Positions 11,127 through 30,953 of a stretch of DNA of 32,000 bases are shown here, one piece after another. This DNA comes from Opitutales bacterium (GTDB taxonomy: Bacteria > Verrucomicrobiota > Verrucomicrobiia > Opitutales > PNEW01): contig CBDCNV010000001.1 in assembly GCA_965219535.1 (NCBI GenBank), positions 660,001 to 692,000 of the forward strand, written 5' to 3'. Every line of letters starts with the position of its first letter. The first letter of the stretch is position 1. The notes beneath the pieces were generated by a model. The model was not told the DNA's origin. It was given only the letters and a program-made list of their open reading frames with translations, and searched no databases. The position numbers and the translations under genes are program-made.

Positions 11127-12089
11127 GTGTTCATCAATTCTAAAAAAATCTGGGAGTTGCCAGAATCGGCGGTAACACCTGAATCGGTCTATCAAAGTCG
11201 CCGGGCTTTTTTGAAATCATTAGGCTATGGTGTTGCCGGGGCCGCTCTTTCAGCAAGCTATCTGGATGGGGCAACCACAGGTTTTCCCACCGAACGCAAC
11301 CCTAAATATACCCTCAGAGAACTCGATCTTACCCCCTATGATTTGGTCACCAGCTACAATAATTTTTATGAGTTTTCGACCGATAAAGGGGGTCCGAAAA
11401 AACTGGCCAATAAAGGTTGGAATCCTGAACCGTGGACGGTTGAAGTAAGGGGGTTGGTGCGTAATCCGATAAAAATGGATGTCAATGACCTGATCAAAAA
11501 AGTGGGTGGTATTGAGCAGCGAGTATACCGTTTACGATGTGTCGAAGCGTGGTCTATGGTCGTCCCTTGGGATGGATTTCCCCTGCGCAAGCTGATTGAA
11601 CTGGTGGAACCTATAGCGGATGCAAAATTTGTGAAGTTCACTTCCTTCAATAATCCTGAGGAAGCACCCGGACAGCGGAGGAACAATATCGATTGGCCCT
11701 ATGTTGAAGGGCTTACCCTGAGTGAAGCGGCCAATGAACTAACATTTATGGGGACTGGTCTGTATGGGAAACCCATGCCTAATCAGAATGGAGCTCCGAT
11801 CCGCCTAGTTGTCCCATGGAAATATGGATTTAAAAGTATAAAATCGATTGTACACATTGATTTTACGAGTAAGGCGCCAATTAATACCTGGCAGGCGTTA
11901 CAACCTCGAGAATACGGGTTTTTTGCGAATGTTAATCCTAATGTAAGCCATCCGCGATGGTCTCAAGCTACGGAGCGAATAATTGGGGGTGGATTTTTTA
12001 ACTCACGAAAAGAGACGCTCATGTTTAATGGGTACGAAAAGGAAGTCGGACATCTTTATCGTGGACTCGATCTGCGGAAATTTTACTAG
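11127..12089 (+). CDS. msrP: Protein-methionine-sulfoxide reductase catalytic subunit MsrP (YedY), a molybdopterin enzyme with a Tat signal
   Basis: GTG start. The Tat motif is SRRAFLKSLGYGVAGAAL. The blocks YNNFYEFSTDKGGP, YRLRCVEAWSMVVPWDGFPL, NGAPIRLVVPWKYGFKSIKSIV and SHPRWSQATER match YedY/MsrP. The msrQ partner lies immediately downstream. Confidence 0.9.
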   Translation: MFINSKKIWELPESAVTPESVYQSRRAFLKSLGYGVAGAALSASYLDGATTGFPTERNPKYTLRELDLTPYDLVTSYNNFYEFSTDKGGPKKLANKGWNPEPWTVEVRGLVRNPIKMDVNDLIKKVGGIEQRVYRLRCVEAWSMVVPWDGFPLRKLIELVEPIADAKFVKFTSFNNPEEAPGQRRNNIDWPYVEGLTLSEAANELTFMGTGLYGKPMPNQNGAPIRLVVPWKYGFKSIKSIVHIDFTSKAPINTWQALQPREYGFFANVNPNVSHPRWSQATERIIGGGFFNSRKETLMFNGYEKEVGHLYRGLDLRKFY

Positions 12090-12136
12090 AATTTTCCCAT
12101 TCGAATTTAACGCCATTACTCGCGTTACGCTTAAAT

Positions 12137-12793
12137 ATGAAGGAGAAACTGGTTAATATATTTCGCTCCAAATTATTTATCTATACCGTGTTAGCGTTAC
12201 CGGGGCTGTATACACTTTACCCCATCCTATCACAGAATCCCACTTTTCTCGCTGATCCGGCTAAATACCTTCTCGAGTATGTCGGTAAGACAGCTACTTT
12301 GCTTTTTATCTTTGTTCTTTCTTTGAGCCCAATGCGGGCGCTCATACCTAATTCACAAATCATTGCTTCAATAAATCGACACCGACGTATATTCGGAGTA
12401 AGTGCATTTGTGTATGTGGTATTTCATTTTTCGTTTTATTTAATTTACGAGGGGATACTTTCACAAATTGTAGAGAATTTTCAAAAACCATTTATTTTAT
12501 CCGGAGCTTTTGCCTTCTTTATTCTGTTTATTCTCGCCTCAACCAGCACCGATTGGGCTGTTAGAAAATTTGGCTATACGCGTTGGAAACGCATTCACAG
12601 ACTAGCTTATTTAGCGGCATTACTAATATTCTATCATCAAGCGGTACAGGAAAAAACCGGAGCGGTTCAGACCGTCTACTTTTTTGCCCCACTCGCCATG
12701 TTGGAGTGCGCACGCGTGAGCAAAAATATCCTAAAAAAGAAAACTTTAAAAAATAACAGTTCTAAAACCCACGCTGCAGCTGATCGTAGATAG
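12137..12793 (+). CDS. msrQ: Protein-methionine-sulfoxide reductase heme-binding membrane subunit MsrQ (YedZ)
   Basis: It has a ferric-reductase-like TM topology with conserved His-containing helices (HRRIFGVSAFVYVVFHFSFYLIY; RWKRIHRLAYLAALLIFYH). It starts 47 nt after msrP. Confidence 0.85.
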   Translation: MKEKLVNIFRSKLFIYTVLALPGLYTLYPILSQNPTFLADPAKYLLEYVGKTATLLFIFVLSLSPMRALIPNSQIIASINRHRRIFGVSAFVYVVFHFSFYLIYEGILSQIVENFQKPFILSGAFAFFILFILASTSTDWAVRKFGYTRWKRIHRLAYLAALLIFYHQAVQEKTGAVQTVYFFAPLAMLECARVSKNILKKKTLKNNSSKTHAAADRR

Positions 12794-12924
12794 TAAATTA
12801 CTAGGGTATGATGAATTTACAGCATTAATAGATGGCCATTATGAAAGGCCCCTATTGCGACTATTAAAAGGATGCTGATTAACTTTATTTTCAAAGGGGA
12901 TGTCTTTAATTTAATAAATGAATT

Positions 12925-13590
12925 TTAACTAAATGCATTTTTAAATTTTTGGGCAAAGATTTTCTTGTCGTCCGCATTGAAAAATGCGGACCCGGCGACA
13001 AAAGTGTCACAACCTTTCTGACGGCATTTCAGCCCAGTATCCAGGTTAATCCCACCATCAACTTCGAGGCGAAAATCAAGATGTCTTTCATGGCGCCAGG
13101 AATCTATAACCCCTAATTTATCAAGCATATCTTCGCGAAAAGTCTGACCTCCAAACCCGGGTTGAACGGTCATCACCAACACAAGATCTACGTCTTCAAT
13201 ATAGGGGATCAGGGATTCGGCACTAGTATCAGGATTGATTACGAGACCATTCTTGCATCCTAAATCACGAATGTGTTTAAGTGTTTCTTTCACCGGGTAG
13301 TCGGGTTCGACATGGATACTGATAAGATCGGACCCAGCTTGAGCGAAGGATTCTACATAGTCCTGCGGTTGAGAAAGCATAAGGTGAGTATCGAAAAACA
13401 ATTGGCTGTTTTTACGCAGGTCAACGATAGTCTGGGGGCCGAAAGTCAGATTAGGAACAAAATTACCATCCATGATATCGAGATGGACCCAGCGCAACCC
13501 GGTTTCGGCTATGATACGGATACTTTTCTCGAGATTTGCATGGTCACCGGCTAGTATAGAGGGTGAGAGAATAATTTCTTTCTCGCTCAT
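12925..13590 (-). CDS. rpe: Ribulose-phosphate 3-epimerase
   Basis: The blocks SILAGDHANLE, HLDIMDGNFVPNLTFGP, DTHLM, ISIHVE, VLVMTVQPGFGGQTF, LEVDGGIN and VAGSAFF match Rpe over the full length of 221 aa. Confidence 0.92.
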   Translation of the reverse strand: MSEKEIILSPSILAGDHANLEKSIRIIAETGLRWVHLDIMDGNFVPNLTFGPQTIVDLRKNSQLFFDTHLMLSQPQDYVESFAQAGSDLISIHVEPDYPVKETLKHIRDLGCKNGLVINPDTSAESLIPYIEDVDLVLVMTVQPGFGGQTFREDMLDKLGVIDSWRHERHLDFRLEVDGGINLDTGLKCRQKGCDTFVAGSAFFNADDKKIFAQKFKNAFS

Positions 13591-14255: not shown

Positions 14256-15953
14256 TTAATTGTTTTCTTCGTTATTATGGGGATCGAGATGAATTTCGTT
14301 CTTGGGTGAAATTAAATTTTCCTCTAATTCCTGCGACCTGTTAAACAGCTTAAAACGTAGTGGTTTTTTCCCCTCTTTCGAAGCTAATTTTTCCTCTGTA
14401 TTTTCTGTTTTATCATTGTTATTAAACAGCCGGAAAAGTGCAGGTTTTCCCTCTTCATGCGTCGTAAGGTCCTCCACCGGGTCTCCACTATCCTGTAGTG
14501 ACTTAGAGCTATCCAGATTTTCTTCTGCCAGGGTTAGTGGATTCTCCTCTTCAACAGTAGCTGGTGTGCCTTCACTATTCCCGGATTTATTAAAAATACC
14601 TAAACGAAGCAGTTTTTTATCCTCTTTCGAAGTTACATTTTCCTCCGTATCTTCTGTTTTATCCTTGTTGTTGAACAGCCGAAAGCGTGCTGATTTTTCC
14701 TCTTCATTCGTCGTAAGGCCCTCTACCGGGTCTTCAATAGCCTGTAGGGACCTGGAGTTATCCAGATTTTCTTCTGCCAGGGTTATCGGGTTCTCCTCTA
14801 CAACGGCGGCTGCTTTGTCTTCACTATTCCCGAATTTATTAAAAATACCTAAACGAAGCAGCTTTTTTTCTTCATTCTCGATCGGCGTTTCATTGTTAAC
14901 ATTATCTGAATTTAATAACTTCAGGCGGGCGGGTTCTCCGTCCTCTTGAGCTACTAAAATTTCGTCTTCTATATCGATTTCAGGCTTTAGAGCATCTATT
15001 TTATTAAGGTAACCACGCGCCAGCTGAGCAGTTGGTGAATTGGGTGAAACCGTAATAGCGTCATTAAAGAAAACTTCCGCAGCCCGATAATTTGAACGAC
15101 GTTTAAAATAATATTCACCGATAATGAATTTGCTTTGCGCATGAATATCCTGCATGTCAGCTAATTTTTCTTCACCCTCGGTTATTAAATCGCTGTTGGG
15201 AAATAAAATTAAAAAGTCACGATAATAGCTGATAGCTTCACGTGTGGCACCTTGATCGTAATCGGGGCCCGCGACCATTGAACTGAAAGTGTCAGCCAAC
15301 TCCAGATAGGCGTCAGGAGCTATTTCACTGTTAGAATAAAAATTTATAAGTCGATCGAGCGCGTCAATAGCTTCAGGTTGATCGCCTTGAGTTCTGTGCA
15401 TGATAGCTACTCGCATGAGTGATTTAGGGGCGTACTCACTATACGGCGCGTTTCCGACAATAGTTTCAAAGTATTGAATGGCTGCGTCATAATTATGAAA
15501 CTTAAAGAGGAAAAAATATTGTCCACTTTTCGAATTCATCGTTCGCTCGGCGATGTTAAACTGCTTCTCGAGGACTTGATTAAATTTCGGGAAATCTGGA
15601 TGGCGGACTACCGCAAAATTATACGATTCGAATGCCTTTTTATAATCCTTTCGCAACACATGAATGTCACCGGTTTGATAGTAAGCTTCCGGCGCGTATG
15701 AACAAGTTGGATACTTCTTTATGATTTGCTTATAGGTTTCTATCGCATCCCCGTATTTCTTTTTCTCCTGTAATGCATATGCCTTTTCAATTAATTCCAG
15801 TGCGCGCTCATTCTGAATTTCTAAAGGTAAGTCACGGGATTTCACTTGATTTTTGCCAGATAAAAACCCATAGGTCTCTTGAAAAGAAAGTCCAAAGACC
15901 AGTATGATGAGGGTAGGTGAAGATAATAAAAGACGTATCGTTCTCATTGCCAT
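14256..15953 (-). CDS. BamD/YfiO-like TPR protein (residues about 40-320) with a 240-aa acidic, internally repeated C-terminal extension. It has a signal peptide but no lipobox Cys.
   Basis: TPR-like pairs with recurring YP-x-S-x-YAP strings (YPTCSYAPEAYY, APYSEYAPKSL, FPNSDLITEGEEKLADMQDIHAQSKFIIGEYYFKRRSNYRAAEVFFNDAI) follow the BamD pattern. The last block resembles the conserved BamD C-terminal region. The start overlaps the fabH stop by 10 nt, or by 4 nt (ATGA) if Met3 at 15947 is used. Confidence 0.6.
   Translation of the reverse strand: MAMRTIRLLLSSPTLIILVFGLSFQETYGFLSGKNQVKSRDLPLEIQNERALELIEKAYALQEKKKYGDAIETYKQIIKKYPTCSYAPEAYYQTGDIHVLRKDYKKAFESYNFAVVRHPDFPKFNQVLEKQFNIAERTMNSKSGQYFFLFKFHNYDAAIQYFETIVGNAPYSEYAPKSLMRVAIMHRTQGDQPEAIDALDRLINFYSNSEIAPDAYLELADTFSSMVAGPDYDQGATREAISYYRDFLILFPNSDLITEGEEKLADMQDIHAQSKFIIGEYYFKRRSNYRAAEVFFNDAITVSPNSPTAQLARGYLNKIDALKPEIDIEDEILVAQEDGEPARLKLLNSDNVNNETPIENEEKKLLRLGIFNKFGNSEDKAAAVVEENPITLAEENLDNSRSLQAIEDPVEGLTTNEEEKSARFRLFNNKDKTEDTEENVTSKEDKKLLRLGIFNKSGNSEGTPATVEEENPLTLAEENLDSSKSLQDSGDPVEDLTTHEEGKPALFRLFNNNDKTENTEEKLASKEGKKPLRFKLFNRSQELEENLISPKNEIHLDPHNNEENN
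14334..14867 (-). repeat. In-frame tandem repeat, 249-nt (83-aa) period, two full copies plus a partial third, inside the BamD-like gene
   Basis: Protein residues 363-445 and 446-528 align almost throughout. The first reads KKLLRLGIFNKFGNSEDKAAAVVEENPITLAEENLDNSRSLQAIEDPVEGLTTNEEEKSARFRLFNNKDKTEDTEENVTSKED. The second reads KKLLRLGIFNKSGNSEGTPATVEEENPLTLAEENLDSSKSLQDSGDPVEDLTTHEEGKPALFRLFNNNDKTENTEEKLASKEG. A third start, KKPLRFKLFNRS, follows. At DNA level aacagcc recurs at 14425 and 14674, and ttcttctgccagggtta recurs with the same offset. Confidence 0.9.
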
Positions 15954-20479: not shown

Positions 20480-21901
20480 TTATAAATCGTAGTACATATA
20501 AAACTCGTAAGGGTGAGGTCTTAAATTTAACTCTGCCAGTTCACGCGTCCGTTTATAATCGATCCAGGTATCAACAACATCAGAAGTGAATACGTCACCC
20601 CTGAACAGCCAATCGTGATCAGCTTCCAGGTTATCGAGGACATCTCCCAGGGAACCAGGCGTACTATTAATTTTTTCAGCTTCTTGGGGTTCCAAATCAT
20701 ATAAATTTCGGTCGTGTGGATCTCCGGGATCGATTTTATTCTGAATCCCATCCAACCCGGCCATGAGCATCGCAGATAAACAGAGATAGATGTTGCAGGA
20801 TGGATCTGGACATCTGAATTCTATTCGTTTTGCAGCCGCACTCTTAGAATAGAGTGGAATGCGAACGGCAGCGGAACGGTTGCGCTGGGAGTAAACGAGG
20901 TTTACCGGCGCTTCGTATCCTGGTACTAATCGCTTGTAGCTATTCGTGGTAGGATTGGTGAAAGCGAGAAGGGCAGGGGCGTGTTTTAAAAGACCGCCGA
21001 TATAATATTTCGCCATATCGCTAATCTGTGCGTATCCTTTTTCATCATAGAATAGATTGTTATCTCCTTTCCACAAACTTTGGTGCACATGCATACCGGA
21101 GCCGTTATCTTGAAAGATCGGCTTGGGCATAAAGGTGACTGTTTTATCATATTTTTTGCAAACATTGCGTACAATGTATTTATATTGCATGACTCTATCA
21201 GCCATCGTCGTTAAGGGCGCGTAGCGCATATCAATCTCAGCCTGTCCCGCGGTACCCACTTCATGATGGTGCACTTCCGTCTCAACACCTACATCCTTCA
21301 ACCTCAGAATTATTTCGGAACGGAGGTCTTGTAGCGAATCCGTTGGTGGAACAGGAAAATAGCCTTCTTTGTGGCGAGGTTTGTAACCAAGATTGGGATA
21401 TTCCTCACGGCCTGAGTTCCATATGCCCTCTTTTGAGTCGATAAAGTAGTAGGCAGAATGGGCATTTTGATCGAATCGAACATCGTCAAATATGTAAAAT
21501 TCAAGCTCAGGGCCCCAGTAGCTGACATCAGCGATTCCCTCGCTCTGGAGGAATTTTTCCGCTTTCTGTGCGATATAACGAGGGTCACGGCTATAAGGTT
21601 GCCTGGTGACGGGATCGAAAATATTGCAAGTTAAACTCAGGGTTGGTATCTGCAAGACAGGATCGACAACAGCCGAATCAGGATCAGCAACCAATATCAT
21701 GTCGCTTTCTTGAATCTCCTGAAAACCACGGACACTGGAGCCGTCGAACCCCATCCCTTCACCAAATAGGTCTTCCGTGAGATCTTCTACTGGGAGAGAA
21801 AAGTGCTGCCACACACCTGGCAGGTCACAGAATCTCATATCCACGATTTTCACCCCCCCATCTTTCGCAATTTTTTCTACATCATTTAAAGTCTTAGGCA
21901 T
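20480..21901 (-). CDS. glnA: Glutamine synthetase, type I
   Basis: The 473-aa protein has GSI blocks throughout: VDMRFCDLPGVWQHFS, GFDGSSVRGF, GPELEFYIFD, HHHEVGTAGQAEID, KPIFQDNGSGMHVHQSLW, NSYKRLVPGYEAPV, SQRNRSAAVRIP and RIEFRCPD. NLYDL resembles the adenylylation-site Tyr context of GSI-beta enzymes. Confidence 0.95.
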   Translation of the reverse strand: MPKTLNDVEKIAKDGGVKIVDMRFCDLPGVWQHFSLPVEDLTEDLFGEGMGFDGSSVRGFQEIQESDMILVADPDSAVVDPVLQIPTLSLTCNIFDPVTRQPYSRDPRYIAQKAEKFLQSEGIADVSYWGPELEFYIFDDVRFDQNAHSAYYFIDSKEGIWNSGREEYPNLGYKPRHKEGYFPVPPTDSLQDLRSEIILRLKDVGVETEVHHHEVGTAGQAEIDMRYAPLTTMADRVMQYKYIVRNVCKKYDKTVTFMPKPIFQDNGSGMHVHQSLWKGDNNLFYDEKGYAQISDMAKYYIGGLLKHAPALLAFTNPTTNSYKRLVPGYEAPVNLVYSQRNRSAAVRIPLYSKSAAAKRIEFRCPDPSCNIYLCLSAMLMAGLDGIQNKIDPGDPHDRNLYDLEPQEAEKINSTPGSLGDVLDNLEADHDWLFRGDVFTSDVVDTWIDYKRTRELAELNLRPHPYEFYMYYDL

Positions 21902-22091: not shown

Positions 22092-24038
22092 ATGCCAAGA
22101 AATCCTGCAAGTTCTCGTTTGTATAAAATCGAACATTCAGGCTTTTACCAAGCCAGCGGTATCCTGGATTGGTTGATAACAATCTTCGCTGTATTCATCC
22201 TGGGCTACAATATCTGGCATTTGGGGGGATATCATCCCTATGCGCAAATGGTAAGTTCATGGATGACAGGGGGGTTGCTTGTCCTGCATGGTTTTTGGGG
22301 GTTATCGAGACACAATGACAATATTAGGATTAACCCACTGGGCCTGGTTTTTATCCCTTTCCTCCTTTATATTTACGTCAGTTATCTCTTCCTCACTCCT
22401 GTTCCATGGCTAGCCAAGCGAGAGTTAATTATGGGGTGTCAGGGCATGGTCGTTTTCTGGGTTATCCTGCATAATCTAAGGCGAAAAGAATGTTTATGGT
22501 TTTTTCTAATATCTCTGGTAGTGCTGGCTTTTATCTGTGTTTTAGTTGCTTACTACCAGTATTTCACCGAATCGGACTGGTTGCCGATGGGTCGTAAGCA
22601 AGTCGACACTTATGACGGTCGTGCATCAGGTACGTTTGGTATTCCCAATAGTTTGGCTGCTTTACTGATTTTAATTATCCCCCCCTTGATCGTTATTGGG
22701 TTTGCGCCAAAAAAATCCATCAACTTACGCATTGTATGCATCTATTTGGCCCTGATGTTTTCGGGCGGGATTATCATAACTGGCAGTCGGGGAGGGTCGA
22801 TTGGGTTTATTTGTGCTCTCTTAATATTGCCGTATTTTGTCACGAGACAAGTCATCGATCGATTGAAGTTTTTCTTTGCTATTATCATCACCGGGGTTGT
22901 GGTCTTTCTCGTTGTTTATATCTTCGTCGATACATATCGGCAGCGTGTGGATTACCTCGTTGACCAACGGGGTGAATCCTCACGAAAGATCCTTTGGCGA
23001 GCTTCATGGGATATATTTAAAAAGCAGCCGCTCACCGGTAGCGGTGCTGCCAGCTTTGATCATCAATTCGAATTTTACCGCCCGGAGTCTCTCCAGCTTC
23101 GTGCCCGACATACACATAATGATTACTTGAATACTTTAAGTGATTATGGGCTGTTAGGTTTTATACTGCTCTTTTTCCCCGCACTATACCTCCTCTGGCG
23201 CGGGTGGTCTGTCTGGAGAAATCTACCCTTCTTCGCTCGCTCGAGGGAGTCAAAAGTAAGAGTGACACCCACAACTAAATTAATCCTCGGTGGATTACTG
23301 CCGGGTGTTGTGGCCTTTTCTATTCATCTATTCGTTGACTTTCATTTAAAGATTCTCGCTCTTCTCTTGATTCTCGCCTCTATATTTGGACTGATTGTCA
23401 AATGTTCTTCAACTTCCGATTGGGGTCTACCGGGGAAACGTTGGGGGTCAGGTTTGTGGTTTGTTTTCATGCTCACACTTGGCCTGTGTCTGGGGTGGGA
23501 GGGAATGAAGTCATTTAAAAGCGCAGAGCGTTATTTTGAAGCGCGTGAGCGACTGGATGACTATTTCGATAATTTAGAAAGCATGCGAAGGGATGAAGCA
23601 TACATCAGCGAAACAATTCGCGTATTCGAGGAAAGCACAAGATGGGATCCAGACAATGCCTATGCCTGGGGTGACCTCGGAATGGCGACATTGCAGACTT
23701 ATTACTTGAATCCTGAGAATTATAAGAACATCGGCCAAGACGCTCAAATGAAAATAGAGAAAGCTTTGGCTATTACCGATCAAGTTTGGTCTTTTCATGC
23801 TTATAAAGGATTGGCTTTGAACTTACAGGGCAGAACCTTAGATGAGGTGCGACCCTCTTTTAAAAAAGCGATCACCTTTGGGGCTAATAATGCTGATGCT
23901 TGGTATTATTACGGCGCCGTTCTTGGGTATAATAAATCGGCGCGAAAGGAAGCTGTAGAGGCCTTAGAACGGGCGATTAAGCTTGACCACGGCCATGGTG
24001 ATGCTATAAGATTAAGGGACAAATTGAAATCACGGTAA
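22092..24038 (+). CDS. Wzy_C / O-antigen-ligase-like polytopic membrane protein fused to a C-terminal TPR domain (648 aa)
   Basis: It has about 10-12 TM segments. A large loop carries SRKILWRASWDIFKKQPLTGSGAASF and HTHNDYLNTLSDYGLLGF, which fit the Wzy_C pattern (G.G.G.F plus H-N-x-YL and a GxxG helix). Residues from about 470 to 648 are soluble TPR-like repeats (AYAWGDLGMATLQ, NADAWYYYGAVLGYNKSARKEAVEALERAIKLD). Confidence 0.7.
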   Translation: MPRNPASSRLYKIEHSGFYQASGILDWLITIFAVFILGYNIWHLGGYHPYAQMVSSWMTGGLLVLHGFWGLSRHNDNIRINPLGLVFIPFLLYIYVSYLFLTPVPWLAKRELIMGCQGMVVFWVILHNLRRKECLWFFLISLVVLAFICVLVAYYQYFTESDWLPMGRKQVDTYDGRASGTFGIPNSLAALLILIIPPLIVIGFAPKKSINLRIVCIYLALMFSGGIIITGSRGGSIGFICALLILPYFVTRQVIDRLKFFFAIIITGVVVFLVVYIFVDTYRQRVDYLVDQRGESSRKILWRASWDIFKKQPLTGSGAASFDHQFEFYRPESLQLRARHTHNDYLNTLSDYGLLGFILLFFPALYLLWRGWSVWRNLPFFARSRESKVRVTPTTKLILGGLLPGVVAFSIHLFVDFHLKILALLLILASIFGLIVKCSSTSDWGLPGKRWGSGLWFVFMLTLGLCLGWEGMKSFKSAERYFEARERLDDYFDNLESMRRDEAYISETIRVFEESTRWDPDNAYAWGDLGMATLQTYYLNPENYKNIGQDAQMKIEKALAITDQVWSFHAYKGLALNLQGRTLDEVRPSFKKAITFGANNADAWYYYGAVLGYNKSARKEAVEALERAIKLDHGHGDAIRLRDKLKSR

Positions 24039-24065: not shown

Positions 24066-24980
24066 ATGAATCGGTCATTATCTATCCTGTTTTTTGTCTC
24101 TATTTCTTCTCTTATTTTTTCACTTCAAGCATTCGGGCAGGAGGCGGGTATTATCATCCTGGCCAATGTTAAGGGTGAGGTTATATATAATACTACCTCA
24201 GACGCGCCGGCACAGGTTGCGAGTGAAGGTATACGGTTGGGCGAGGGAGCGGTGGTGGAAACGATGGAAAAATCATCCGCGATCTTAGTTTTCTCAAACG
24301 GTTCAACTGTTAATCTATCGGAAAAAACTAAAATTTCTGTTAAGCAATTTTTACAGGAACCTTTTGATTCAGATCCTGCTGATATTGCCGATGCTAAAAG
24401 GGAACCGAGTATGTCTCAAACTCGCCTCGCCCTGGATTATGGCGATATGGTGGGTAACATTAAAAAGCTCAGAAGAGGCAAAGGATCCCTATTTGAAATT
24501 GAAACACCTGCTGGCATAGCGGGTATCAGGGGAACAATTATATCTTTGACGGTAGTCTTAGGACCTTCTGGTAATATTTTGAGCTTTTCAGCTACCTTCG
24601 TCGATGGTAGCGGGCAATTAACTCAAGTTGATGGAACCATTTCTGTTATAAGCGACGGTATTGAGTTAACTACATCAGAAAGTGGGGAAACCGCGCTTAA
24701 TGAAGCTGATGCTGAGACAGTCGAAGGTATGCGAGCAGCAGCGGCCGAGGGTCAAGAAGCATTTGAAGCACATGTCGAAACTATAGTAGCTGAAATCGAG
24801 GCCGCAGCCGCAGCCGCTAGCAGCGGTGACGACGACGATAGTGGAGATGATGATGATAGCAGCGGTGACGATGACGATAGTAGCGGAGACGACGATGACA
24901 GTGGTGGCGATGGCGATGATGGAAATCTTCCCCAAGGTCAGTCTGAGCAACCCGACATTACTACCGGTACCGGGACTTAA
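24066..24980 (+). CDS. Secreted FecR-domain-like protein with a helical Ala/Glu segment and a poly-acidic (S)SGDDDD C-terminal tail (304 aa)
   Basis: The signal peptide is MNRSLSILFFVSISSLIFSLQAFGQ. The block ANVKGEVIYNTTSDAPAQVASEGIRLGEGAVVETMEKSSAILVFSNGSTVNLSEKTKISV fits the FecR beta-sandwich pattern (G.V......A..G..L..G..V.T...S.A.L.F..GS.V.L...T.). It starts 27 nt after the Wzy_C-TPR gene. Confidence 0.55.
   Translation: MNRSLSILFFVSISSLIFSLQAFGQEAGIIILANVKGEVIYNTTSDAPAQVASEGIRLGEGAVVETMEKSSAILVFSNGSTVNLSEKTKISVKQFLQEPFDSDPADIADAKREPSMSQTRLALDYGDMVGNIKKLRRGKGSLFEIETPAGIAGIRGTIISLTVVLGPSGNILSFSATFVDGSGQLTQVDGTISVISDGIELTTSESGETALNEADAETVEGMRAAAAEGQEAFEAHVETIVAEIEAAAAAASSGDDDDSGDDDDSSGDDDDSSGDDDDSGGDGDDGNLPQGQSEQPDITTGTGT
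24819..24926 (+). repeat. Short in-frame tandem repeat encoding SSGDDDD SGDDDD SSGDDDD SSGDDDD SGGDGDDGN
   Basis: The run agcggtgacgacgacgat / agtggagatgatgatgat / agcagcggtgacgatgacgat / agtagcggagacgacgatgac is read directly. The units are 18-21 nt and use varied Asp/Ser/Gly codons. Confidence 0.85.
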
Positions 24981-25069
24981 GACTGGATTAAATCGCCTTC
25001 CTTTTCGCAATAGAGCTAGCGATAGCAGCATCAGTTTTTATTTCTAGACTCAGCTAAATAATAACAGTT

Positions 25070-25128
25070 TACCGATTTTCAGGTTAATCGGTAGAAAGAA
25101 ATTTTTCACCCCTCGTTAAGTGAGGGGT
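25070..25128 (+). terminator. Two consecutive hairpins in the 201-nt gap after the FecR-like gene (possible terminator or attenuator)
   Basis: Hairpin 1 pairs taccgatt (25070-25077) with aatcggta (25086-25093), a perfect 8 bp stem with an 8-nt loop. Hairpin 2 pairs acccctc (25108-25114) with gaggggt (25122-25128), a 7 bp stem with a 7-nt loop. Hairpin 2 is preceded by attttt and followed by tattta. Neither has a clean U-tract. Confidence 0.35.
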
Positions 25129-25181
25129 TATTTAAGCCGTTATATAAGTGAGAACAGCGTTGTGTAACAGCGGTTTAATCC

Positions 25182-28151
25182 ATGGGCATGTTGTTAGGAT
25201 ACAGAGCTAAAATCCGAAATAAAGAATACGGCTTTGCTCTTATAATAATTTTATCCTTAACCGCCTTATTAACTTTCCTTCTGCTTAGTATGGCTACCTT
25301 CGTTCGGGTAGATACAAGCGTTGTAGAGACGAGAAATTACCAAAAACTGGCAAGAGATAACGCGATTTATGCTTTTCGTCTGGCTTTAAGTGAAATTCAA
25401 CTATATGCCGGTCCCGACCAACGGGTTACTGCTCGCGCCGATATATTTGACGAAAATATTGCCAATCCCTTTTGGACGGGAATTTGGAATGTAGATCCCA
25501 CTTCATCAGGTTATGGTGATGTAACCTGGCTCGTATCAGGGATGAATCCCAATCCTCGCTTGGCGATGGAGGATGAAGTTATTCTATTGGGAGATGGTTC
25601 TGCATCAGAGATCATTGCCCTGCCACGTGAGCCAATCTTCATTACACCATTTGAGAGACAGGAAAAATCCAGCCTCATCAGGCAGGGGCATTATGCTTAC
25701 TGGGTGTCTGATGAAGGAATAAAAGCAAGTATCGCAAAGATCGATCACACTGATGTAAGAATTAACTATCGCAATGACATAGAGCGCGATCTCATGAGGC
25801 AATTGAGTCCTCAGAAAATAGGAGGTGAAGTGTTTTATCCCGATTTGAGTCCTTTGAGTTTGGACTATGACTCGGTTAATTCGAATCTGCATAAAATACA
25901 TTCGCGATCACAATTACCATTAATAAGCGGATTAATTGGTAATGAAAAGTCGGCGCTCAATGCTATCGCGCATCAGCATTTTCATGATCTGACAACTGTG
26001 GCATATGGCGTTATTGCCAATACTTTGAGTGGTAAGGATGCCGGTTTGAAAAAAGACCTTTCTCTCTATCCATCACTTTTAGGCCCAGGTTTCGAAGCGT
26101 ATCTGGATTATCCGTCCTACATGGCAGGGATGAATGATAAAGCAGAAACGTCGCTTCCAACTCGGCATTATAATATAACCCCTTTTGATTCCACCTTTAC
26201 TCAACCCGGTCAGATTCAGCATACCATTGCTCCGATTCTCACTGAATCTTTATTTCAAATAAATATTCGAAGTAATGAGAAATCTCCTGAAATAAGGGTG
26301 AGGTTACGCAGTCTGTTTGAACTGTGGAATCCCTACACAAGTGAAATCCTCCTTGGCTCAAGCAACGCTGGTGAACTTGAAATGGCAGTAACTGGTTTAC
26401 CAACGATCTTAGTTGTCGATTCAAATGGTGGTACGGCCAGCATTGATCTGCAGAACCTCTTGGGTGATACCTCGCAACCTGATTCACCATTTATTATCCG
26501 CCTCCCTTTCCCCGCGGAAGAACATTGGTTGCCGGGGCGTATTTTTAACTGGGCGGGGGCTCCAATCGCTAACTTTGATTCGCGGAGATGGAATCTAAAT
26601 GCAATTACGATTGGGGGGGCAAACGGTTTGGAAACGGGTAAAATGGCACTCGAGCCAATTCGGAGCAAAACCAGTAATGATACGCGATTTGAAATTACAA
26701 GCGCTGAACTGACTTCTCTCAATCTGAAATTATATCTTGCTGTGTTTGGTAAGGAGAAGGCATTGCTCGCAGATTATCGCGATGTCCAATTTTCCGAAAT
26801 TGACGTTGCCCCCTACAAACACTGGCAGAAGACAATGAATTTTGGTTTCCATTTCCGCTTGAAAGAACCTATCGACAGCCATGCGCACCCTGAACATCGC
26901 AGGGGGCAATGGCTCGTCGATCATGATCCCCAATTAAATGCATCAGCCTTTACCAGTGTGCAAGGTGTTCTACCTGCCGAACCAGAGCTATTCGGTGGCG
27001 CTAATGTTAAAACTTCAGCTCCCTCACATATTTTTGACCGTCGATCTGGTAATAATTTTCGACATCCTTATGAGGATATCCCCATTTTTGAGTTACCACG
27101 ATTAGATGCTTATTCCCTGGGATCATTGCAGCACCTATTCATTGTTGGAGAAAGACCTTTCTCCATTGGGAATCGTTGGAGTTCCGAATCGTGGCGAAGT
27201 ATTTTTGACCGCTATTTTCTCTCTGCTCTTCCTCGCCATGGCGATCCTGCGGACTTTGACCCTAGGCTTCCATTGCCTAATCCCTGGCTTGTTTTACATC
27301 ACTCTCTTCCCACAGTCTCATTGGGAATGGAGGATATTCTCACTTCAGGAAATGAGTCCGCCCGTCACTTTTTCATACAGGGTGCTTTCAACATAAACTC
27401 CACTTCTGTCTCTGCGTGGGAAGCAGTTCTTAGTTCTTTAAAAATTAAAGATTGGAGATATCTTGATGTTGATAATAAAAAAGGTACTCCGCAAACGGTC
27501 TCTACCGTTGATTTAATGACTTCGTTTGCACGCTTCTCGCAAAGTGCTCAAGAGACTTTTGAAGCGCCGGACGTCAAGCAGGATCCTTATGATCCGGGCC
27601 CAACTGTATTTCCGACAAAATTGTACCGTCGAGGATTGAGAACCCTTAGTAAAGATGAAATCGACATTATGGCACAGGGGATAGTAGACCGGCTACGAAT
27701 AAATGCTGCCGATGGTATTCCTTTTCGATCACTGGGTGAATTTATTGGACCCTTGAGTGGAGAAGATCCTGAATCGATGAGTGTAGTTGAGGCTGCGATC
27801 GCTGATATTGATAATATAAATTTATGGCAGGCGGATGGAGAGGTTGTTGAAATCGATAAATTTTCATCCTATGATTTGACATCAGCAGATATCCTTACCG
27901 CTATCGCTCCTTTTATTTCCGTCCGTTCCGATACGTTTCTCGTTAGGGCTTACGGTGATGTCATCAATCCCCTCGTTCGTGATGACAAGGGTCTACCAGT
28001 GACTGAGGGACGAGCCTGGTGTGAAGCAATAGTTCAGCGTCTGCCTGAGTTGCTAAATACTGACGATAATATCTTCTCTCCTTCTCCCTACGGTTTTGGG
28101 CGTCGCTTTTACATCTTATCATTCAGATGGTTAGACACATTAGATATCTGA
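25182..28151 (+). CDS. Giant (989 aa) pseudopilin-like envelope protein with GspK/PilX-type N-terminal anchor and C-terminal block. It is reminiscent of the TIGRFAMs Verru_Chthon cassette protein A class.
   Basis: The N-terminus is basic, then Gly-Phe, then a 22-residue hydrophobic helix (RNKEYGFALIIILSLTALLTFLLLSMATF) with no Glu at +5, as in GspK-type minor pseudopilins. Next come RNYQKLARDNAIYAFRLALSEI and HYAYWVSDEGIKASI. The C-terminus is ISVRSDTFLVRAYGDV...GRAWCEAIVQRLPE. Together these are the bracketing motifs I associate with GspK-like and Verrucomicrobial large pseudopilin-like proteins. The family call is from memory and has not been searched. Confidence 0.55.
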   Translation: MGMLLGYRAKIRNKEYGFALIIILSLTALLTFLLLSMATFVRVDTSVVETRNYQKLARDNAIYAFRLALSEIQLYAGPDQRVTARADIFDENIANPFWTGIWNVDPTSSGYGDVTWLVSGMNPNPRLAMEDEVILLGDGSASEIIALPREPIFITPFERQEKSSLIRQGHYAYWVSDEGIKASIAKIDHTDVRINYRNDIERDLMRQLSPQKIGGEVFYPDLSPLSLDYDSVNSNLHKIHSRSQLPLISGLIGNEKSALNAIAHQHFHDLTTVAYGVIANTLSGKDAGLKKDLSLYPSLLGPGFEAYLDYPSYMAGMNDKAETSLPTRHYNITPFDSTFTQPGQIQHTIAPILTESLFQINIRSNEKSPEIRVRLRSLFELWNPYTSEILLGSSNAGELEMAVTGLPTILVVDSNGGTASIDLQNLLGDTSQPDSPFIIRLPFPAEEHWLPGRIFNWAGAPIANFDSRRWNLNAITIGGANGLETGKMALEPIRSKTSNDTRFEITSAELTSLNLKLYLAVFGKEKALLADYRDVQFSEIDVAPYKHWQKTMNFGFHFRLKEPIDSHAHPEHRRGQWLVDHDPQLNASAFTSVQGVLPAEPELFGGANVKTSAPSHIFDRRSGNNFRHPYEDIPIFELPRLDAYSLGSLQHLFIVGERPFSIGNRWSSESWRSIFDRYFLSALPRHGDPADFDPRLPLPNPWLVLHHSLPTVSLGMEDILTSGNESARHFFIQGAFNINSTSVSAWEAVLSSLKIKDWRYLDVDNKKGTPQTVSTVDLMTSFARFSQSAQETFEAPDVKQDPYDPGPTVFPTKLYRRGLRTLSKDEIDIMAQGIVDRLRINAADGIPFRSLGEFIGPLSGEDPESMSVVEAAIADIDNINLWQADGEVVEIDKFSSYDLTSADILTAIAPFISVRSDTFLVRAYGDVINPLVRDDKGLPVTEGRAWCEAIVQRLPELLNTDDNIFSPSPYGFGRRFYILSFRWLDTLDI

Positions 28152-28891
28152 TTCTTCTCTATTCATCACTTGTTTTATTTTTCTATGCCTCAGGACAAGA
28201 CGATGGGCCAATCACCCATAATTACACCTTTAGCGTGTATGCGTTCAAAAAGATTCAAGGTCTCTATTACGATACTTATTCTGTAGATTCATTAAGTCAG
28301 CGTGAGTGTTTGAAAACGGTTTCGATCCCCTTGCGTTTCTACACCGTTTCACGATCACCTTCCTACCACTATAGAGGTCCCAATCCGATTGTTTTTTATC
28401 GCTGGGAAACTGATCTCTCAGATTCAACAAATAAAATGAAAATCCCGGTAGGTTCTGTATCTCTATCTTATGTGAATCGAAATCTACTCTTCATCTTTCT
28501 CCCAGGCGTTGATTCACAAATTGAAAATCCTAAATTCAATATACAAACCTTTAATGACAGCTCTTCCCATCTGCCGATGAATAAGTTGATTGTTTACAAT
28601 CTTTCAGGGCGACTGTTGGAAGGAAATATTGGAGGGGAAAGCGTCAGCATTGGCACTGGTCCTACCGCTCCATTTTCAACACGTAATTCATTACCTGTCA
28701 CCCTATGGTATAAAATCAATGGAAATGTGGTACCAGGTTTTAACCTTTCTTTAACTCTAAAGCGCAATCACCGTTACCTGATTTTTTTCTTTCCTCCGGC
28801 TATTAAGGGGGCAATAGAGTTACAATACCGGATTTTGGATGAGGAAGTTGAAGTCCCTCGCGAATTAATATTTCAAGAATTAGAGGGTTAA
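28127..28891 (+). CDS. Secreted beta-rich hypothetical protein (254 aa), with its start inside the last 25 nt of the giant gene
   Basis: The signal peptide is MVRHIRYLILLYSSLVLFFYASGQ. The rest is rich in short alternating hydrophobic strands (YTFSVYAF, IPLRFYTV, IVFYRW, VSLSYV, LLFIFLPG, LIVYNL, VTLWYKI, YLIFFFP). I recognised no family. There is no alternative in-frame Met near the 5' end, so the 25-nt overlap with 25182..28151 appears real. Confidence 0.6.
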   Translation: MVRHIRYLILLYSSLVLFFYASGQDDGPITHNYTFSVYAFKKIQGLYYDTYSVDSLSQRECLKTVSIPLRFYTVSRSPSYHYRGPNPIVFYRWETDLSDSTNKMKIPVGSVSLSYVNRNLLFIFLPGVDSQIENPKFNIQTFNDSSSHLPMNKLIVYNLSGRLLEGNIGGESVSIGTGPTAPFSTRNSLPVTLWYKINGNVVPGFNLSLTLKRNHRYLIFFFPPAIKGAIELQYRILDEEVEVPRELIFQELEG

Positions 28892-28940: not shown

Positions 28941-30830
28941 CTAGAATTGGTAGCCGAGATAGTTCCAGTGATTAAGCCCCCAGAGAAAAATTAAAATTCC
29001 AGTTAATAAAACAAAAACAAAGATTTTTTCGCATTTTTGAAAAACAGAACTCTTCCAGTTGATAGCAGTGTGATATATCAGTCCAACACTAGCGGCCATT
29101 GCAAAGAATGGAACGCTAAGCAGACCATAAAGTGCTATTGGCATTTCCTCGACCATCTTATATGAGCCGAGAGAAGTTAGAATAAAAATACCGATAAAAA
29201 AAACTAAGGGGGCGATAGCGACGAGAGATGCATATTTCCTTATGCTTCTTAGTGTGAGTAGTGATTCATTTTCATTATTTTTTTTCCGCGTTTTTATAAA
29301 TATTATTATACAAATCAGCGTTGAAAGCGTGAATGTGACGACTATGCCAGCGATTAATCCGCGGTGAAACCAAGCTGTTTTAAACCACTTGATTTTATTA
29401 TATACTTCTACACCTCCAAGATAGAGATGTGCGAATGCATTTTCATCATTACGTACAAACGCAACGATTTTATTATCAGTTGTCCGTGCAAAGAGATCCG
29501 CACCTATTGGTTGACTGAGAACACCGTCGATTAATAACACTTTGTTGTCGGTCGCCGTAACTCGAATTTCCTTACCCTGTATCCCTACTAAAGCACAGGC
29601 TTTTCCGGGAGAGGTTCGCGGATACCAATTATGACGGTATGTTCCCGTGTAGGATAAAGCATTGAATGCAGAGTGTGTTTCATTTGAAGTATCGGTCGCT
29701 GCTGTCTGCGCAGGGAAAAAACGTTGAAGAAAAGCACTTAGAAATGCGTTTAAAAATTTAGGGTCCGCATTGTAATTGAGAAAAATACCTAAACGGTGCT
29801 CAGGCATAATAATTAAAGCGCTTCTATGTCCCGGCATATGGCCCGTATGCCAGAGTAGATGTTGCTCGTTCTCTTCATATGCCCAGAAACCATAGGCGAT
29901 ACCGGGAAGTTTTGGGTTGAGTGTGTGGTGTTCTTCATGGACCAACTTTAATGACTCTGCATGCTGATATAATTTTGGCTCACTACCGTTTGTCTCGCTT
30001 GTCTCATAATCCAAATGAGCATTCATAAATAAGGCCATGTCCTGTGCTGTCGTAATGAGTGAGGAAGCGGGATAGGGTTTCCAATGGCCGCGCGGTAATT
30101 CGCGGTAATTCCGCATAAAATAGTTATAACCCAATGCCACTTCTGCATCCCAATCTTTAGGAGGGATGAAGCTCGTCTGTGACATGCCTAAAGGGCTGAA
30201 TATATTATTGTGAGCATATTCAGCAAAGGGTTGACCGCTGACTTCTTCGATAACATAACCGGCCAGGGAGATTCCGTAATTAGAATAATTGATTACTTCT
30301 CCCGGATTAGCGAGTGGCGGTGGCATCTCTTCGCGAAGAAATTGCCCGAGTGGAAGTAAATCCTTCGAATCTTTTACCGTCTGGCCAAAAAATCTTTCAC
30401 CTACTCCACCCGTATGGGTAAGTAATTGATGGAGAGTTATGGGTGCATTGTATTCTTCGAGTATATCAGGTTCGATATAATCGGTAATATCAGTTTCCAT
30501 ATCCAGTTGATTGCGGTCATAGAGTTGAATCACCGCGGTTGCGGTTATCAGTTTGGAAATTGATCCCACACGAATGCGTGTCTTCACTGGATCCATCAGC
30601 CGTTTCTTATTTAAGTCGGCGTAACCATAACCCTTTAAGATATGAATTGAGCCGTCCTTAACCACCGCAACAACAGCGCCCGGGACGTGTTCTTTTTCCA
30701 TCATCTCAACTAGCCACTCATCGAAAAAAGCTTCAACCTTACTTTTGTCATCAACATCACCTGCAACCAATTTGAGGGTAGCTATAAGCAGTTGAAGTAT
30801 TAGAAGCGTATTTAAATAAATCTGTTTCAT
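28941..30830 (-). CDS. Beta-lactamase-fold serine hydrolase (class C / PBP4*-like family) with signal peptide and a C-terminal four-TM membrane domain. The start is revised to the ATG at 30830.
   Basis: The motifs are S-x-x-K (VGSISKLITATAV), Y-S-N (VINYSNYGISLAGYVIE) and H-T-G (LLWHTGHMPGH). Four C-terminal hydrophobic helices are present (GLIAGIVVTFTLSTLICIIIFI, LVAIAPLVFFIGIFILTSL, IALYGLLSVPFFAMAASVGLIY, IFVFVLLTGILIFLWGL). The track ORF begins at a GTG at 30953 that directly abuts the upstream terminator hairpin. Met42 (MKQIYLNTLLILQLLIATLKLVAG) gives a proper signal peptide. Confidence 0.75.
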   Translation of the reverse strand: MKQIYLNTLLILQLLIATLKLVAGDVDDKSKVEAFFDEWLVEMMEKEHVPGAVVAVVKDGSIHILKGYGYADLNKKRLMDPVKTRIRVGSISKLITATAVIQLYDRNQLDMETDITDYIEPDILEEYNAPITLHQLLTHTGGVGERFFGQTVKDSKDLLPLGQFLREEMPPPLANPGEVINYSNYGISLAGYVIEEVSGQPFAEYAHNNIFSPLGMSQTSFIPPKDWDAEVALGYNYFMRNYRELPRGHWKPYPASSLITTAQDMALFMNAHLDYETSETNGSEPKLYQHAESLKLVHEEHHTLNPKLPGIAYGFWAYEENEQHLLWHTGHMPGHRSALIIMPEHRLGIFLNYNADPKFLNAFLSAFLQRFFPAQTAATDTSNETHSAFNALSYTGTYRHNWYPRTSPGKACALVGIQGKEIRVTATDNKVLLIDGVLSQPIGADLFARTTDNKIVAFVRNDENAFAHLYLGGVEVYNKIKWFKTAWFHRGLIAGIVVTFTLSTLICIIIFIKTRKKNNENESLLTLRSIRKYASLVAIAPLVFFIGIFILTSLGSYKMVEEMPIALYGLLSVPFFAMAASVGLIYHTAINWKSSVFQKCEKIFVFVLLTGILIFLWGLNHWNYLGYQF

Positions 30831-30953
30831 ATTGATGATATGCTTAGATTTATTGAAAACCTGAAAATACAAACAAATAAATTGGATTTTACTTATATAA
30901 TTACAGTCTCTACGCCGAAAATATATCTTCAGTTGGAGCCTTAATTTCCCCAC

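Follow-up and report, generated by a model that had tools for sequence, protein, structure and literature searches.

The gene at positions 25,182..28,151 of the forward strand (stop codon included), in the 32-kb stretch of DNA that we call the window, encodes a giant protein of 989 amino acids, and we think it probable that this protein is the tip, or cap, minor pseudopilin of a T2SS-type pseudopilus, built from a GspK-class core and some 645 residues of inserted, family-specific domains. At the level of sequence profiles, the homology of its two ends to GspK is demonstrated; cleavage of the leader, a location at the tip, an interaction with a partner protein and any binding of cargo or surfaces by the insert are what we infer. 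The gene itself is real, as the original prediction had it: this is the only long open reading frame at that place, it translates into the expected 989 residues, and the sequence features that had been pointed out are there. The broader interpretation has lasted in part, in that an orphan, GspK-like protein with a large insert is what we still see, and membership of the GspK or TIGR02600 families is what has had to be given up.

What, then, makes a protein of this size look like a pilin? It begins with a putative leader peptide (residues 1-17, 25,182..25,232, + strand) ending in Gly17, where a prepilin-peptidase site is predicted between G and FALII, in line with a family consensus, taken from 56 homologues, of [KR][KR]G before the cut and FAL(L/I)(I/L/V) after it. 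The residue at -1 is Gly in 55 of these 56 matched leaders and Ala in the other, and the residue at +5 is I, L, V, M or A, and in none of them Glu. The window protein has Ile at +5 after Gly17, so that the earlier description of a prepilin-type signal lacking Glu5 was right; Ile for Glu at this position is as expected of the GspK class, unlike ordinary pilins. Judged by its sequence, the protein would be cleaved after Gly17, and a hydrophobic stretch of 23 residues follows directly. The segment KEYGFALIIILSLTALLTFLLLSMAT quoted for this signal does occur, though at residues 14-39 and not at 16-41. Neither TIGR02532 (IV_pilin_GFxxxE) nor Pfam PF07963 (N_methyl) matches the window protein. Beyond the leader lies a predicted alpha-1 helix (residues 18-76, 25,233..25,409, +), a transmembrane and assembly segment that runs on into an amphipathic pilin helix. 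AF2 draws residues 18-76 as a single continuous helix, the N-terminus aligns with a GspK profile by hhalign (residues 11-77, probability 92.9%, E 3.7e-7), and the NCBIfam GspK model finds residues 17-81 at 17.3 bits (E 0.0027). The AF2 model as a whole (pTM 0.80) includes this 59-residue N-terminal helix and, at the other end, long strands.

That other end carries the second half of the argument. A putative GspK-like C-terminal module (residues ~723-930, 27,348..27,971, +) aligns by hhalign with the alpha-domain and last strand of GspK: when the fragment alignment A2 was compared with the GspK alignment A3, 163 columns matched GspK positions 95-292 with a probability of 87.4% (E 3.7e-6), and the score of 49.4 stood above reversed controls (16-23) and 20 block-shuffles (at most 35.9). 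Recognizable counterparts are GAFNINSTS for CFNLNALA of GspK, GIPFRSLGEF for a motif of the GspK helical domain and RSDTFLVRAYG for the S-x-yF strand of GspK. These matches depend on a profile built from 35 diverse GspKs (the single E. coli GspK is too weak a query, giving 31% at the N-terminus and nothing at the C-terminus), and in the full-length context the probability of the C-terminal match falls to 39%. After the module come the last long beta-strands (residues 931-989, 27,972..28,148, +), which include the blocks WCEAxVQRxPE and GRRFxIxSFRWL, with AF2 strands at residues 918-933, 939-957 and 974-984 and with Q952, R953, R974 and W983 invariant in the homologue alignment; this part aligns with the GspK C-terminus at low confidence only. 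The two C-terminal blocks that had been singled out, ISVRSDTFLVRAYGDV (residues 912-927) and GRAWCEAIVQRLPE (residues 943-956), are both found in the translation. They are not there by chance, since R915, D917, T918, F919, R922, Q952 and R953 are invariant in 26 homologues that, save for one at 67%, are only 28-37% identical.

More direct tests did not bring the protein into a named family. The suggested HMM check against GspK, PilX and TIGR02600 gave only the 17-bit N-terminal GspK match and nothing from TIGR02600 or Pfam; other family members score 13-24 bits with NCBIfam GspK, and the cut-off of the GspK equivalog model (NF037980) is 130 bits. The Pfam T2SSK models (PF21687 T2SSK_1st, PF03934), PilX_N and N_methyl match 0 of 26 members, whereas nearly all of the true GspKs that we compared have PF21687 and most have PF03934 too; indeed no Pfam model of any kind matches any of the 26 full-length members at E<=1. 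Among 19 full-length members tested with NCBIfam, the pseudopilin-type matches, seen in 15, were to GspK (profile positions 2-70) and Verru_Chthon_A (1-60) only, apart from an extra weak PilV match in one (E 0.21); models for GspG, GspH, GspI, GspJ and the GFxxxE domain gave no match in the 19, and none of 19 C-terminal fragments matched GspK or TIGR02600, nor did these fragments rise above threshold with any other Pfam or NCBIfam model. Foldseek, which had also been proposed as a check, placed GspK (3ci0_K) only twelfth for the full model (E 0.26, TM 0.14), and with a model of residues 700-989 GspK was absent and nothing significant appeared. Against PDB and BFVD the full AF2 model had no match at E<0.09, with C2-like beta-sandwiches and leukocidins at the top, and the family profile returned only noise from all PDB sequences (Dps at E 0.7). 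By this structural route, as far as predicted models can speak to it, homology to GspK is not confirmed. Because these direct HMM and Foldseek tests fail, we speak of a relative, and not a member, of the GspK and TIGR02600 families.

How close a relative is best seen by setting the two side by side. GspK (XcpX/PulK/EpsK; NF037980; PF21687 and PF03934; PDB 3CI0 chain K) is the minor pseudopilin that sits on top of the T2SS pseudopilus. The giant protein resembles it in having Gly at -1, no Glu at +5 and a long alpha-1; in a collinear profile similarity that takes in the N-terminus and residues ~723-930 (helical domain and C-terminal strand); and, in relatives of the window gene, in closing a run of G-, H-, I- and J-like pseudopilin genes. 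It differs in being about three times larger (989 residues against ~300-350), in the ~645 residues inserted after alpha-1, in being followed by the gene of a dedicated secreted partner instead of gspL/M and, in the window, in being unlinked to any pseudopilin gene. The idea of a GspK-like protein with a large insertion thus stands on the hhalign matches at both ends, with their controls, and on the GspK position that relatives occupy in their operons.

The insert (residues 78-722, 25,413..27,347, +) has no Pfam, NCBIfam or PDB match, and from its sequence it would amount to an addition of about 70 kDa. The figure of about 900 unassigned residues given earlier was too high: some 645 remain, because residues ~723-930 align to GspK by profile-profile comparison. 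Its N-proximal part is conserved, with the motifs AGPDQRVTARAD, WTGxW, WLVSG and YAYWVxDEGxKAS; there is a further conserved block, FELPR...IGNxW...FDRYF, and beta-sandwich domains are modelled at about residues 330-560. This middle region does not match GspK by hhalign (E 0.33), Foldseek gives it only C2-like beta-sandwiches, none of them significant, and Pfam, NCBIfam and Foldseek reveal no recognizable adhesin, lectin or vWA domain in the protein. That the insert might bind a substrate is speculation.

A second family to which the protein had been linked is the Verru_Chthon cassette, and here the outcome is again divided: BLASTP relates it to proteins so named, and there is no TIGR02600 match and no membership. 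Against proteins named Verru_Chthon cassette protein A in UniProt, the C-terminal ~310 residues match at E 5e-33 and the N-terminal ~280 at E 4e-23, residues 17-294 being common to both. TIGR02600, a model of 1296 positions with a cut-off of 332.3 bits, does not match the window protein at E<=0.1, and relatives reach 10-30 bits over positions 1-63 only. Genes for the B, C and D members of the cassette are absent from the 32-kb window; in the Horticoccus operon, genes upstream of the homologue match D, B and C weakly and below threshold. What TIGR02600 (with B, C and D, that is, TIGR02598, TIGR02599 and TIGR02596) has in common with our family is a plan in which short prepilin-type proteins are followed by a large Verrucomicrobial protein whose N-terminus is GspK-like; our family is shorter (~1000 residues against 1296 positions) and its middle region is different. 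A literature search found no mention of the Verru_Chthon cassette and no relevant link between GspK and Verrucomicrobia.

Within Opitutales and Puniceicoccaceae, full-length homologues form at least 1250 protein clusters and occupy at least 594 species loci, and the company that they keep is informative. At 42 of 67 related loci, one to five GspG/H/I/J-like prepilin genes (two or more at 40 of those loci) stand immediately before the homologue on the same strand, and the stop codon of one gene often overlaps the start codon of the next. In Horticoccus luteus and Actomonas aquatica, it comes directly after four to five prepilin genes, whose best NCBIfam matches are GspG, GspG, GspH, a PilV/GspI-like and a GspJ/HpsC/Verru_Chthon-C-like model; the first gene of the operon matches GspG, the T2SS major pseudopilin, best (E 1.5e-14), not the PilA-type pilin models. 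In Horticoccus luteus, the I-like and J-like products upstream have 173 and 321 residues, and the partner has 231. At the other 25 of the 67 loci, the homologue is an orphan, a common arrangement that the original prediction had not noted, and the 8-10 kb to either side of every orphan locus are free of prepilin, peptidase and secretin genes. Could the orphans be one clade? We rejected this, since they are patchy on a neighbour-joining tree, though the clade of the window copy is uniformly orphan; in two genome assemblies operonic and orphan copies occur together (L018/L061 and L049/L077). A linkage to gspD/E/F/O was rejected as well: among 83 loci there is one GspF gene 5 kb away, with unrelated genes between, and one weak GspO-like match. 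A GspF-type platform gene does lie on one Puniceicoccaceae contig that has a family member. In Ruficoccus and Coraliomargarita, paralogous modules of a ~1200-residue giant and its partner have sulfatase and glycoside-hydrolase genes around them. In some sources, homologues go by the name "Tfp pilus assembly protein PilX."

The partner had been overlooked. Its gene (28,127..28,891, +) encodes 254 residues and starts within the last 25 nucleotides of the giant gene, and its product begins with what looks, by eye, like a hydrophobic Sec-type signal. A homologue is present in 61 of 84 sources (83 loci and the window), usually of about 230-250 residues and nearly always directly downstream; of the 76 full-length loci that we tabulated, 56 have its start no more than 300 nucleotides from where the giant gene ends. 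Clustered at 50%, the partner family comes to 258 representatives, every one a stand-alone protein of 190-290 residues, and it has no Pfam or PDB match. It looks obligate and is as unannotated as the giant family.

The window copy had been called an orphan, and for the window that word is correct, since a scan of both strands over the 32 kb for G-F-T-L-x-E followed by a hydrophobic run found no canonical prepilin reading frame; there is no peptidase or secretin gene in the window either. An intergenic region of 201 nucleotides (24,981..25,181, upstream on the + strand), in which we read hairpins at 25,070-25,093 and 25,108-25,128, is the probable boundary between the two-gene unit and the FecR-like gene upstream; a promoter and terminator scan of it gave nothing decisive. 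The Wzy_C/TPR and FecR-like genes upstream were considered as parts of the system and rejected, having no homologues beside the family in 80 genome loci; they do recur in the closest relatives. The surroundings are a stable housekeeping context and not one of polysaccharide utilisation: the 67%-identity orthologue has equal length and equal synteny, and the module keeps the same core-genome position at L002, L085, L089 and L091. Both genes are under purifying selection: in one genome pair, whose giant orthologues are 96.6% identical, dN/dS is 0.29 (giant gene), 0.16 (partner) and, for comparison, 0.10 (glnA).

If the protein is a cap, how might it work? Its N-terminal hydrophobic helix would insert it into the inner membrane, and prepilin peptidase would cut after Gly17 to make Phe18 the new N-terminus. 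Without Glu at +5, as in GspK, it would need no subunit above it and so, we propose, would sit at the top of the filament, where, by analogy with GspK-GspI-GspJ, it would prime assembly with I- and J-like minor pseudopilins. The extra ~70 kDa would then crown the tip, and the small secreted partner would probably bind or escort the giant protein. In most Opitutales, a G-(G)-H-I-J-like operon has the giant gene as its final pseudopilin gene. The lineage of the window, whose relatives bear the labels Puniceicoccaceae, Moanabacter and Lentimonas, keeps just the K-like gene and the partner side by side, and these would have to draw on pseudopilins and machinery from elsewhere.

Counting against a cap is that some 110 kDa would be hard to fit into the narrow periplasmic space of a classical T2SS pseudopilus, as noted for the main reading. 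An unlikely alternative is that the protein is the tip adhesin of a surface type IV pilus-like fibre, with an insert that lies outside the cell and binds polysaccharide, DNA or surfaces. The size and the beta-sandwich domains are closer to tip adhesins than to GspK, the Ruficoccus and Coraliomargarita modules have their sulfatase and glycoside-hydrolase neighbours, the PilX label points the same way, and context does not decide which kind of machine it is, because the pseudopilin operons are unlinked to gspD/E/F. The candidates for comparison, PilY1/PilC (not pilins), PilX-type minor pilins and Thermus ComZ, are alike in concept only, as bulky tip domains encoded with a minor-pilin set; PilY1 lacks a pilin N-terminus, unlike the giant protein, which in turn has no detected sequence or fold similarity to solved structures. 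Moreover, GspK is the only profile-level homology that we found, the first gene of the operon is GspG-like rather than PilA-like, none of the domains that one would look for in an adhesin is recognizable, and the window copy keeps its housekeeping neighbourhood.

One could also doubt that there is a filament at all. An uncleaved signal-anchor on a large periplasmic or surface protein, with a convergent or vestigial likeness to GspK, would explain why every direct family HMM and fold search stays below curated thresholds and why the window clade and about a third of loci lack linkage to pilin genes, and the window leader is atypical, reading ...NKEYG instead of KRG before the cleavage site. We hold this to be distinctly improbable given that the collinear similarity at both ends survives reversal and shuffling, that Gly at -1 and the consensus around it are conserved family-wide, that the linkage to prepilin genes at 42 of 67 loci is tight and that two assemblies hold operonic and orphan copies alike. 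Scarcely credible is that the window copy is the decaying remnant of a lost or rearranged pseudopilin operon: 32 kb without pilin genes and a dN/dS above that of glnA in the same genome pair would suit a remnant, but the frame of 989 codons is intact, the family-invariant residues are all present, the orthologue matches in length and synteny, the module has held its core-genome position, and both genes have a dN/dS far below 1.

What would this mean for the organisms? Nothing is overturned, because the TIGRFAMs Verru_Chthon cassette already embodies the idea that, in Verrucomicrobia, short prepilins are followed by a giant pilin-like protein. Opitutales and Puniceicoccaceae are major marine and soil degraders of polysaccharides and depend on exported enzymes; to our knowledge, the build of their secretion machines is essentially unstudied. 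One thought, which we offer as quite a doubtful one, is that the two-gene module (the giant GspK-like cap and its ~25-kDa secreted partner) serves as a "head" that can be exchanged on one common type IV filament or T2SS of Verrucomicrobia, with several paralogous heads per genome, be they operonic, orphan or among sulfatase and glycoside-hydrolase genes. If this were true, each head would fit one machine to a different set of cargo or polysaccharide surface, and the ~645-residue insert and the partner would be new folds that set the specificity of secretion or adhesion. What has been defined here is a large family, without a Pfam, NCBIfam or PDB match, that takes the GspK position in relatives; it gives a name to thousands of "hypothetical proteins" and makes a pseudopilus cap a target for the question of how specificity for cargo or surfaces may arise.

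The open reading frame at 25182..28151 (+), the single long one there, holds 989 codons plus a stop, and the giant protein that it encodes begins with a short, basic leader that ends at Gly17 and is followed by FALIIILSLTALLTFLLLSMATF. The N-terminal string quoted in the original prediction at residues 16-41 is present, at residues 14-39, and the prepilin-type signal without Glu5 that had been read there is borne out: the residue at +5 is Ile, not Glu. Across the family of homologues, the leader consensus is [KR][KR]G|FAL(L/I)(I/L/V), with Glu at +5 in 0/56 sequences; absence of this Glu is the hallmark that sets GspK/XcpX apart from other pseudopilins. The two C-terminal strings occupy residues 912-927 and 943-956. 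When the giant protein is aligned with 25 homologues, R915, D917, T918, F919, R922, Q952 and R953 are invariant, and because the homologues are mostly 28-37% identical, we take these blocks to be family signatures rather than chance.

The family is genuine and well conserved, and has so far gone without annotation. Its members, of ~900-1200 aa, form at least 1250 clusters in the protein database, all of them labeled “hypothetical” or loosely PilX, and they occupy at least 594 loci in species-representative genomes, almost all from Opitutales, Opitutaceae, Puniceicoccaceae or unclassified Verrucomicrobiota. The N-terminal part of one member lies on a 5-kb contig (CAXQRK010000003.1) in a Polaribacter sp. 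MAG bin, which is probably a binning error, since the family is otherwise seen only in Verrucomicrobiota.

What sort of protein is it? Pfam matched neither the window protein nor any of 26 family members; in NCBIfam, TIGR02600 (Verru_Chthon cassette protein A) did not match the window protein, and positions 1-67 of the model for GspK (the minor pseudopilin at the T2SS tip) matched residues 17-81 at 17 bits against a cut-off of 130, so the direct profile check proposed with the original prediction failed. The structural check went the same way. AlphaFold2, given the family alignment, produced a reasonably confident model (pLDDT 76, pTM 0.80) with an N-terminal helix at 18-76 (59 residues), beta-rich middle domains and three long C-terminal strands; Foldseek found nothing significant for it in the PDB, where C2-like sandwiches came out best (E ~0.1) and GspK 3ci0_K ranked 12 (E 0.26). 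A separate model of residues 700-989 did not find GspK, the full model matched nothing in a viral structure library, and the family profile matched no solved-structure sequence. The pseudopilin-type NCBIfam models that family members do match are essentially GspK and Verru_Chthon_A alone: PilV matched one member weakly (E 0.21), and the GspG, GspH, GspI, GspJ and GFxxxE domain models matched none tested.

The GspK-like character that fails at curated cut-offs is upheld at both ends of the protein by profile-profile comparison with an alignment of 35 true GspKs (21-100% identical to E. coli K-12 GspK). Family residues 11-77 align with GspK positions 5-71 (92.9% probability, E 3.7e-7), and the sub-alignment of 700-989 matches positions 95-292 over 163 columns, residues ~723-930 (87.4%, E 3.7e-6), a match that is weaker in full-length context (39% probability). 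Here the family GAFNINSTS meets the invariant GspK CFNLNALA, PFRSLxEF the corresponding motif of the GspK helical domain, and RSDTFxIRAYG the S-x-yF strand. The real score of 49.4 compares with 16-23 for reversed alignments and at most 35.9 for 20 block-shuffles of the GspK alignment, mostly through a single FNxN block. The middle of the giant protein did not match the GspK profile (E 0.33).

The proposed tie to the Verru_Chthon cassette likewise survives in part, as similarity to proteins named for it and not as a TIGR02600 match. Family members tested score at most 30 bits with that model (cut-off 332), over its first ~60 positions only. A divergent Akkermansiaceae member used as query leads to proteins of ~1150-1350 aa from Luteolibacter, Ruficoccus and Coraliomargarita, two of which UniProt names “Verru_Chthon cassette protein A.” The window protein aligns with the Ruficoccus one (P0494) over residues 17-294 (E 4e-23) and again over 673-984 (E 5e-33), the stretch between them being unalignable, and the Luteolibacter one (P0467) gives a similar two-part match; the superfamily core thus comprises ~300 aa at the N-terminus and ~320 aa at the C-terminus, and the center between them varies. 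Judging from sequence, the giant protein would descend from the same stock as GspK and TIGR02600 proteins and may work like both, and it should be filed under neither because the defining HMM tests of both failed.

Gene order speaks to the same question. In Horticoccus luteus and Actomonas aquatica, four or five short prepilin-type genes lie directly before the homologue, and stop and start codons often overlap; their best NCBIfam models, all sub-threshold, are in order GspG, GspG, GspH, PilV/GspI-like and GspJ/HpsC/Verru_Chthon-C-like. The order is the canonical G-H-I-J-K, and the giant protein takes the K position. Using a prepilin-motif regular expression on the 67 fetched loci with enough upstream sequence, we found same-strand upstream prepilin genes in 42 (two or more in 40 of these) and none in 25, the window among them. 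Orphan loci have no prepilin-motif genes within ±8 kb on either strand, and a canonical prepilin motif turns up in no ORF of the 32-kb window, whichever the strand, so its description as an orphan holds. The orphan state is patchy on a neighbor-joining tree: the window's clade is uniformly orphan (L002, L004, L005, L042 and L051, labeled Puniceicoccaceae, Lentimonas and Moanabacter), five prepilin genes are present in its sister, L040, and two assemblies carry an operonic and an orphan copy together (L018/L061, L049/L077). Among fetched loci, gspD/E/F/O machinery is not linked to these operons; on one Puniceicoccaceae contig, a GspF-type gene lies 5 kb off, with unrelated genes between.

A conserved companion is the partner gene at 28127..28891 (+), which overlaps the giant gene's 3′ end by 25 nt and encodes 254 aa with, judged by eye, a Sec-type signal-like N-terminus. 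Homologues occur in 61 of 84 sources searched and start within 300 nt of the giant gene's end in 56 of 76 tabulated full-length loci, operonic and orphan alike. The partner family (258 representatives at 50% clustering, all stand-alone, 190-290 aa) is likewise unannotated, and the partner has no Pfam or PDB match. Behind each of the orphan Ruficoccus and Coraliomargarita genes comes a member of the partner family (E 9e-22 and 1e-29), and L040, the Opitutales locus nearest the window's clade, has two tandem partner paralogues (11261-12046 and 12088-12942) downstream of its giant gene. Since the partner is conserved and the upstream Wzy_C/TPR and FecR-like genes, once candidates for the system, are not conserved neighbors, the conserved unit is giant plus partner.

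The surroundings deserve a word of their own. The FecR-domain protein (24066-24980, +) has a signal peptide and a highly acidic Asp/Ser-rich tail with short imperfect tandem repeats (24818-24917); its gene varies, encoding 231 aa in L085 and being called as a pair of ORFs (132 + 145 aa) in L089, which is 96%-related. The 201-nt spacer 5′ of the giant gene contains hairpins at 25070-25093 and 25108-25128, the second of which, ACCCCTC-7 nt-GAGGGGT followed by TATTTAA, resembles a weak terminator of the gene upstream, though it failed the scan's T-run rule. At 28941-30953 (-), a 670-aa beta-lactamase-fold (class C/AmpH-like) protein whose long C-terminal extension is hydrophobic and probably spans the membrane is a conserved convergent neighbor of the module in L002, L085, L089 and L091. 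Farther off, the gene at 14256..15953 (-) encodes a BamD/YfiO-like TPR protein whose C-terminal extension is long and contains an acidic stretch of ~83 aa in duplicate, from a 249-nt unit repeated 2.0x at 85% identity (14363-14868).

Might an orphan simply be a decaying remnant? We give that hardly any credence: an orthologue at 67% identity has equal length and identical gene order, comparison with a 96.6%-identical orthologue gives the giant gene a dN/dS of 0.29 and the partner 0.16, and the module keeps its core-genome position, beside the beta-lactamase-fold gene and acetolactate synthase, in L002, L085, L089 and L091. The window copy is a maintained gene. Against L089, its closest relative, synonymous divergence is very uneven over 20480-21901, 22092-24038 and 25182-28891 (dS 0.30 for glnA, 0.14 for the Wzy_C/TPR gene and just 0.05-0.06 for the giant gene and partner), a pattern that recombination, or a recent sweep of the module, may explain.

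The best-supported reading, and we think a probable one, takes the protein for a cap pseudopilin of the GspK class that carries an insertion of ~645 aa. Prepilin peptidase would cut it after Gly17, and together with I/J-like subunits it would occupy the tip of a T2SS-type pseudopilus; its dedicated partner, a secreted protein, would accompany it and may bind it. The main rival, still pilin-type, makes it an adhesin on a surface-exposed type IV pilus and is rather unlikely; a signal-anchored protein outside any filament, set beside the family's leader and the GspK matches at both ends, is less likely still.

Any ligand-binding role of the giant protein's insert would be a further step. Paralogous modules, each a ~1200-aa giant plus its partner, in Ruficoccus amylovorans (L087) and Coraliomargarita sp. 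(L088) sit amid sulfatase and glycoside hydrolase (cellulase-family, rhamnosidase) genes. The setting hints at a link to polysaccharide-degradation loci, one that the window copy lacks. It is a long shot, but polysaccharide-degrading Verrucomicrobia could use giant-plus-partner modules as interchangeable heads that lend specificity to a shared filament machine.
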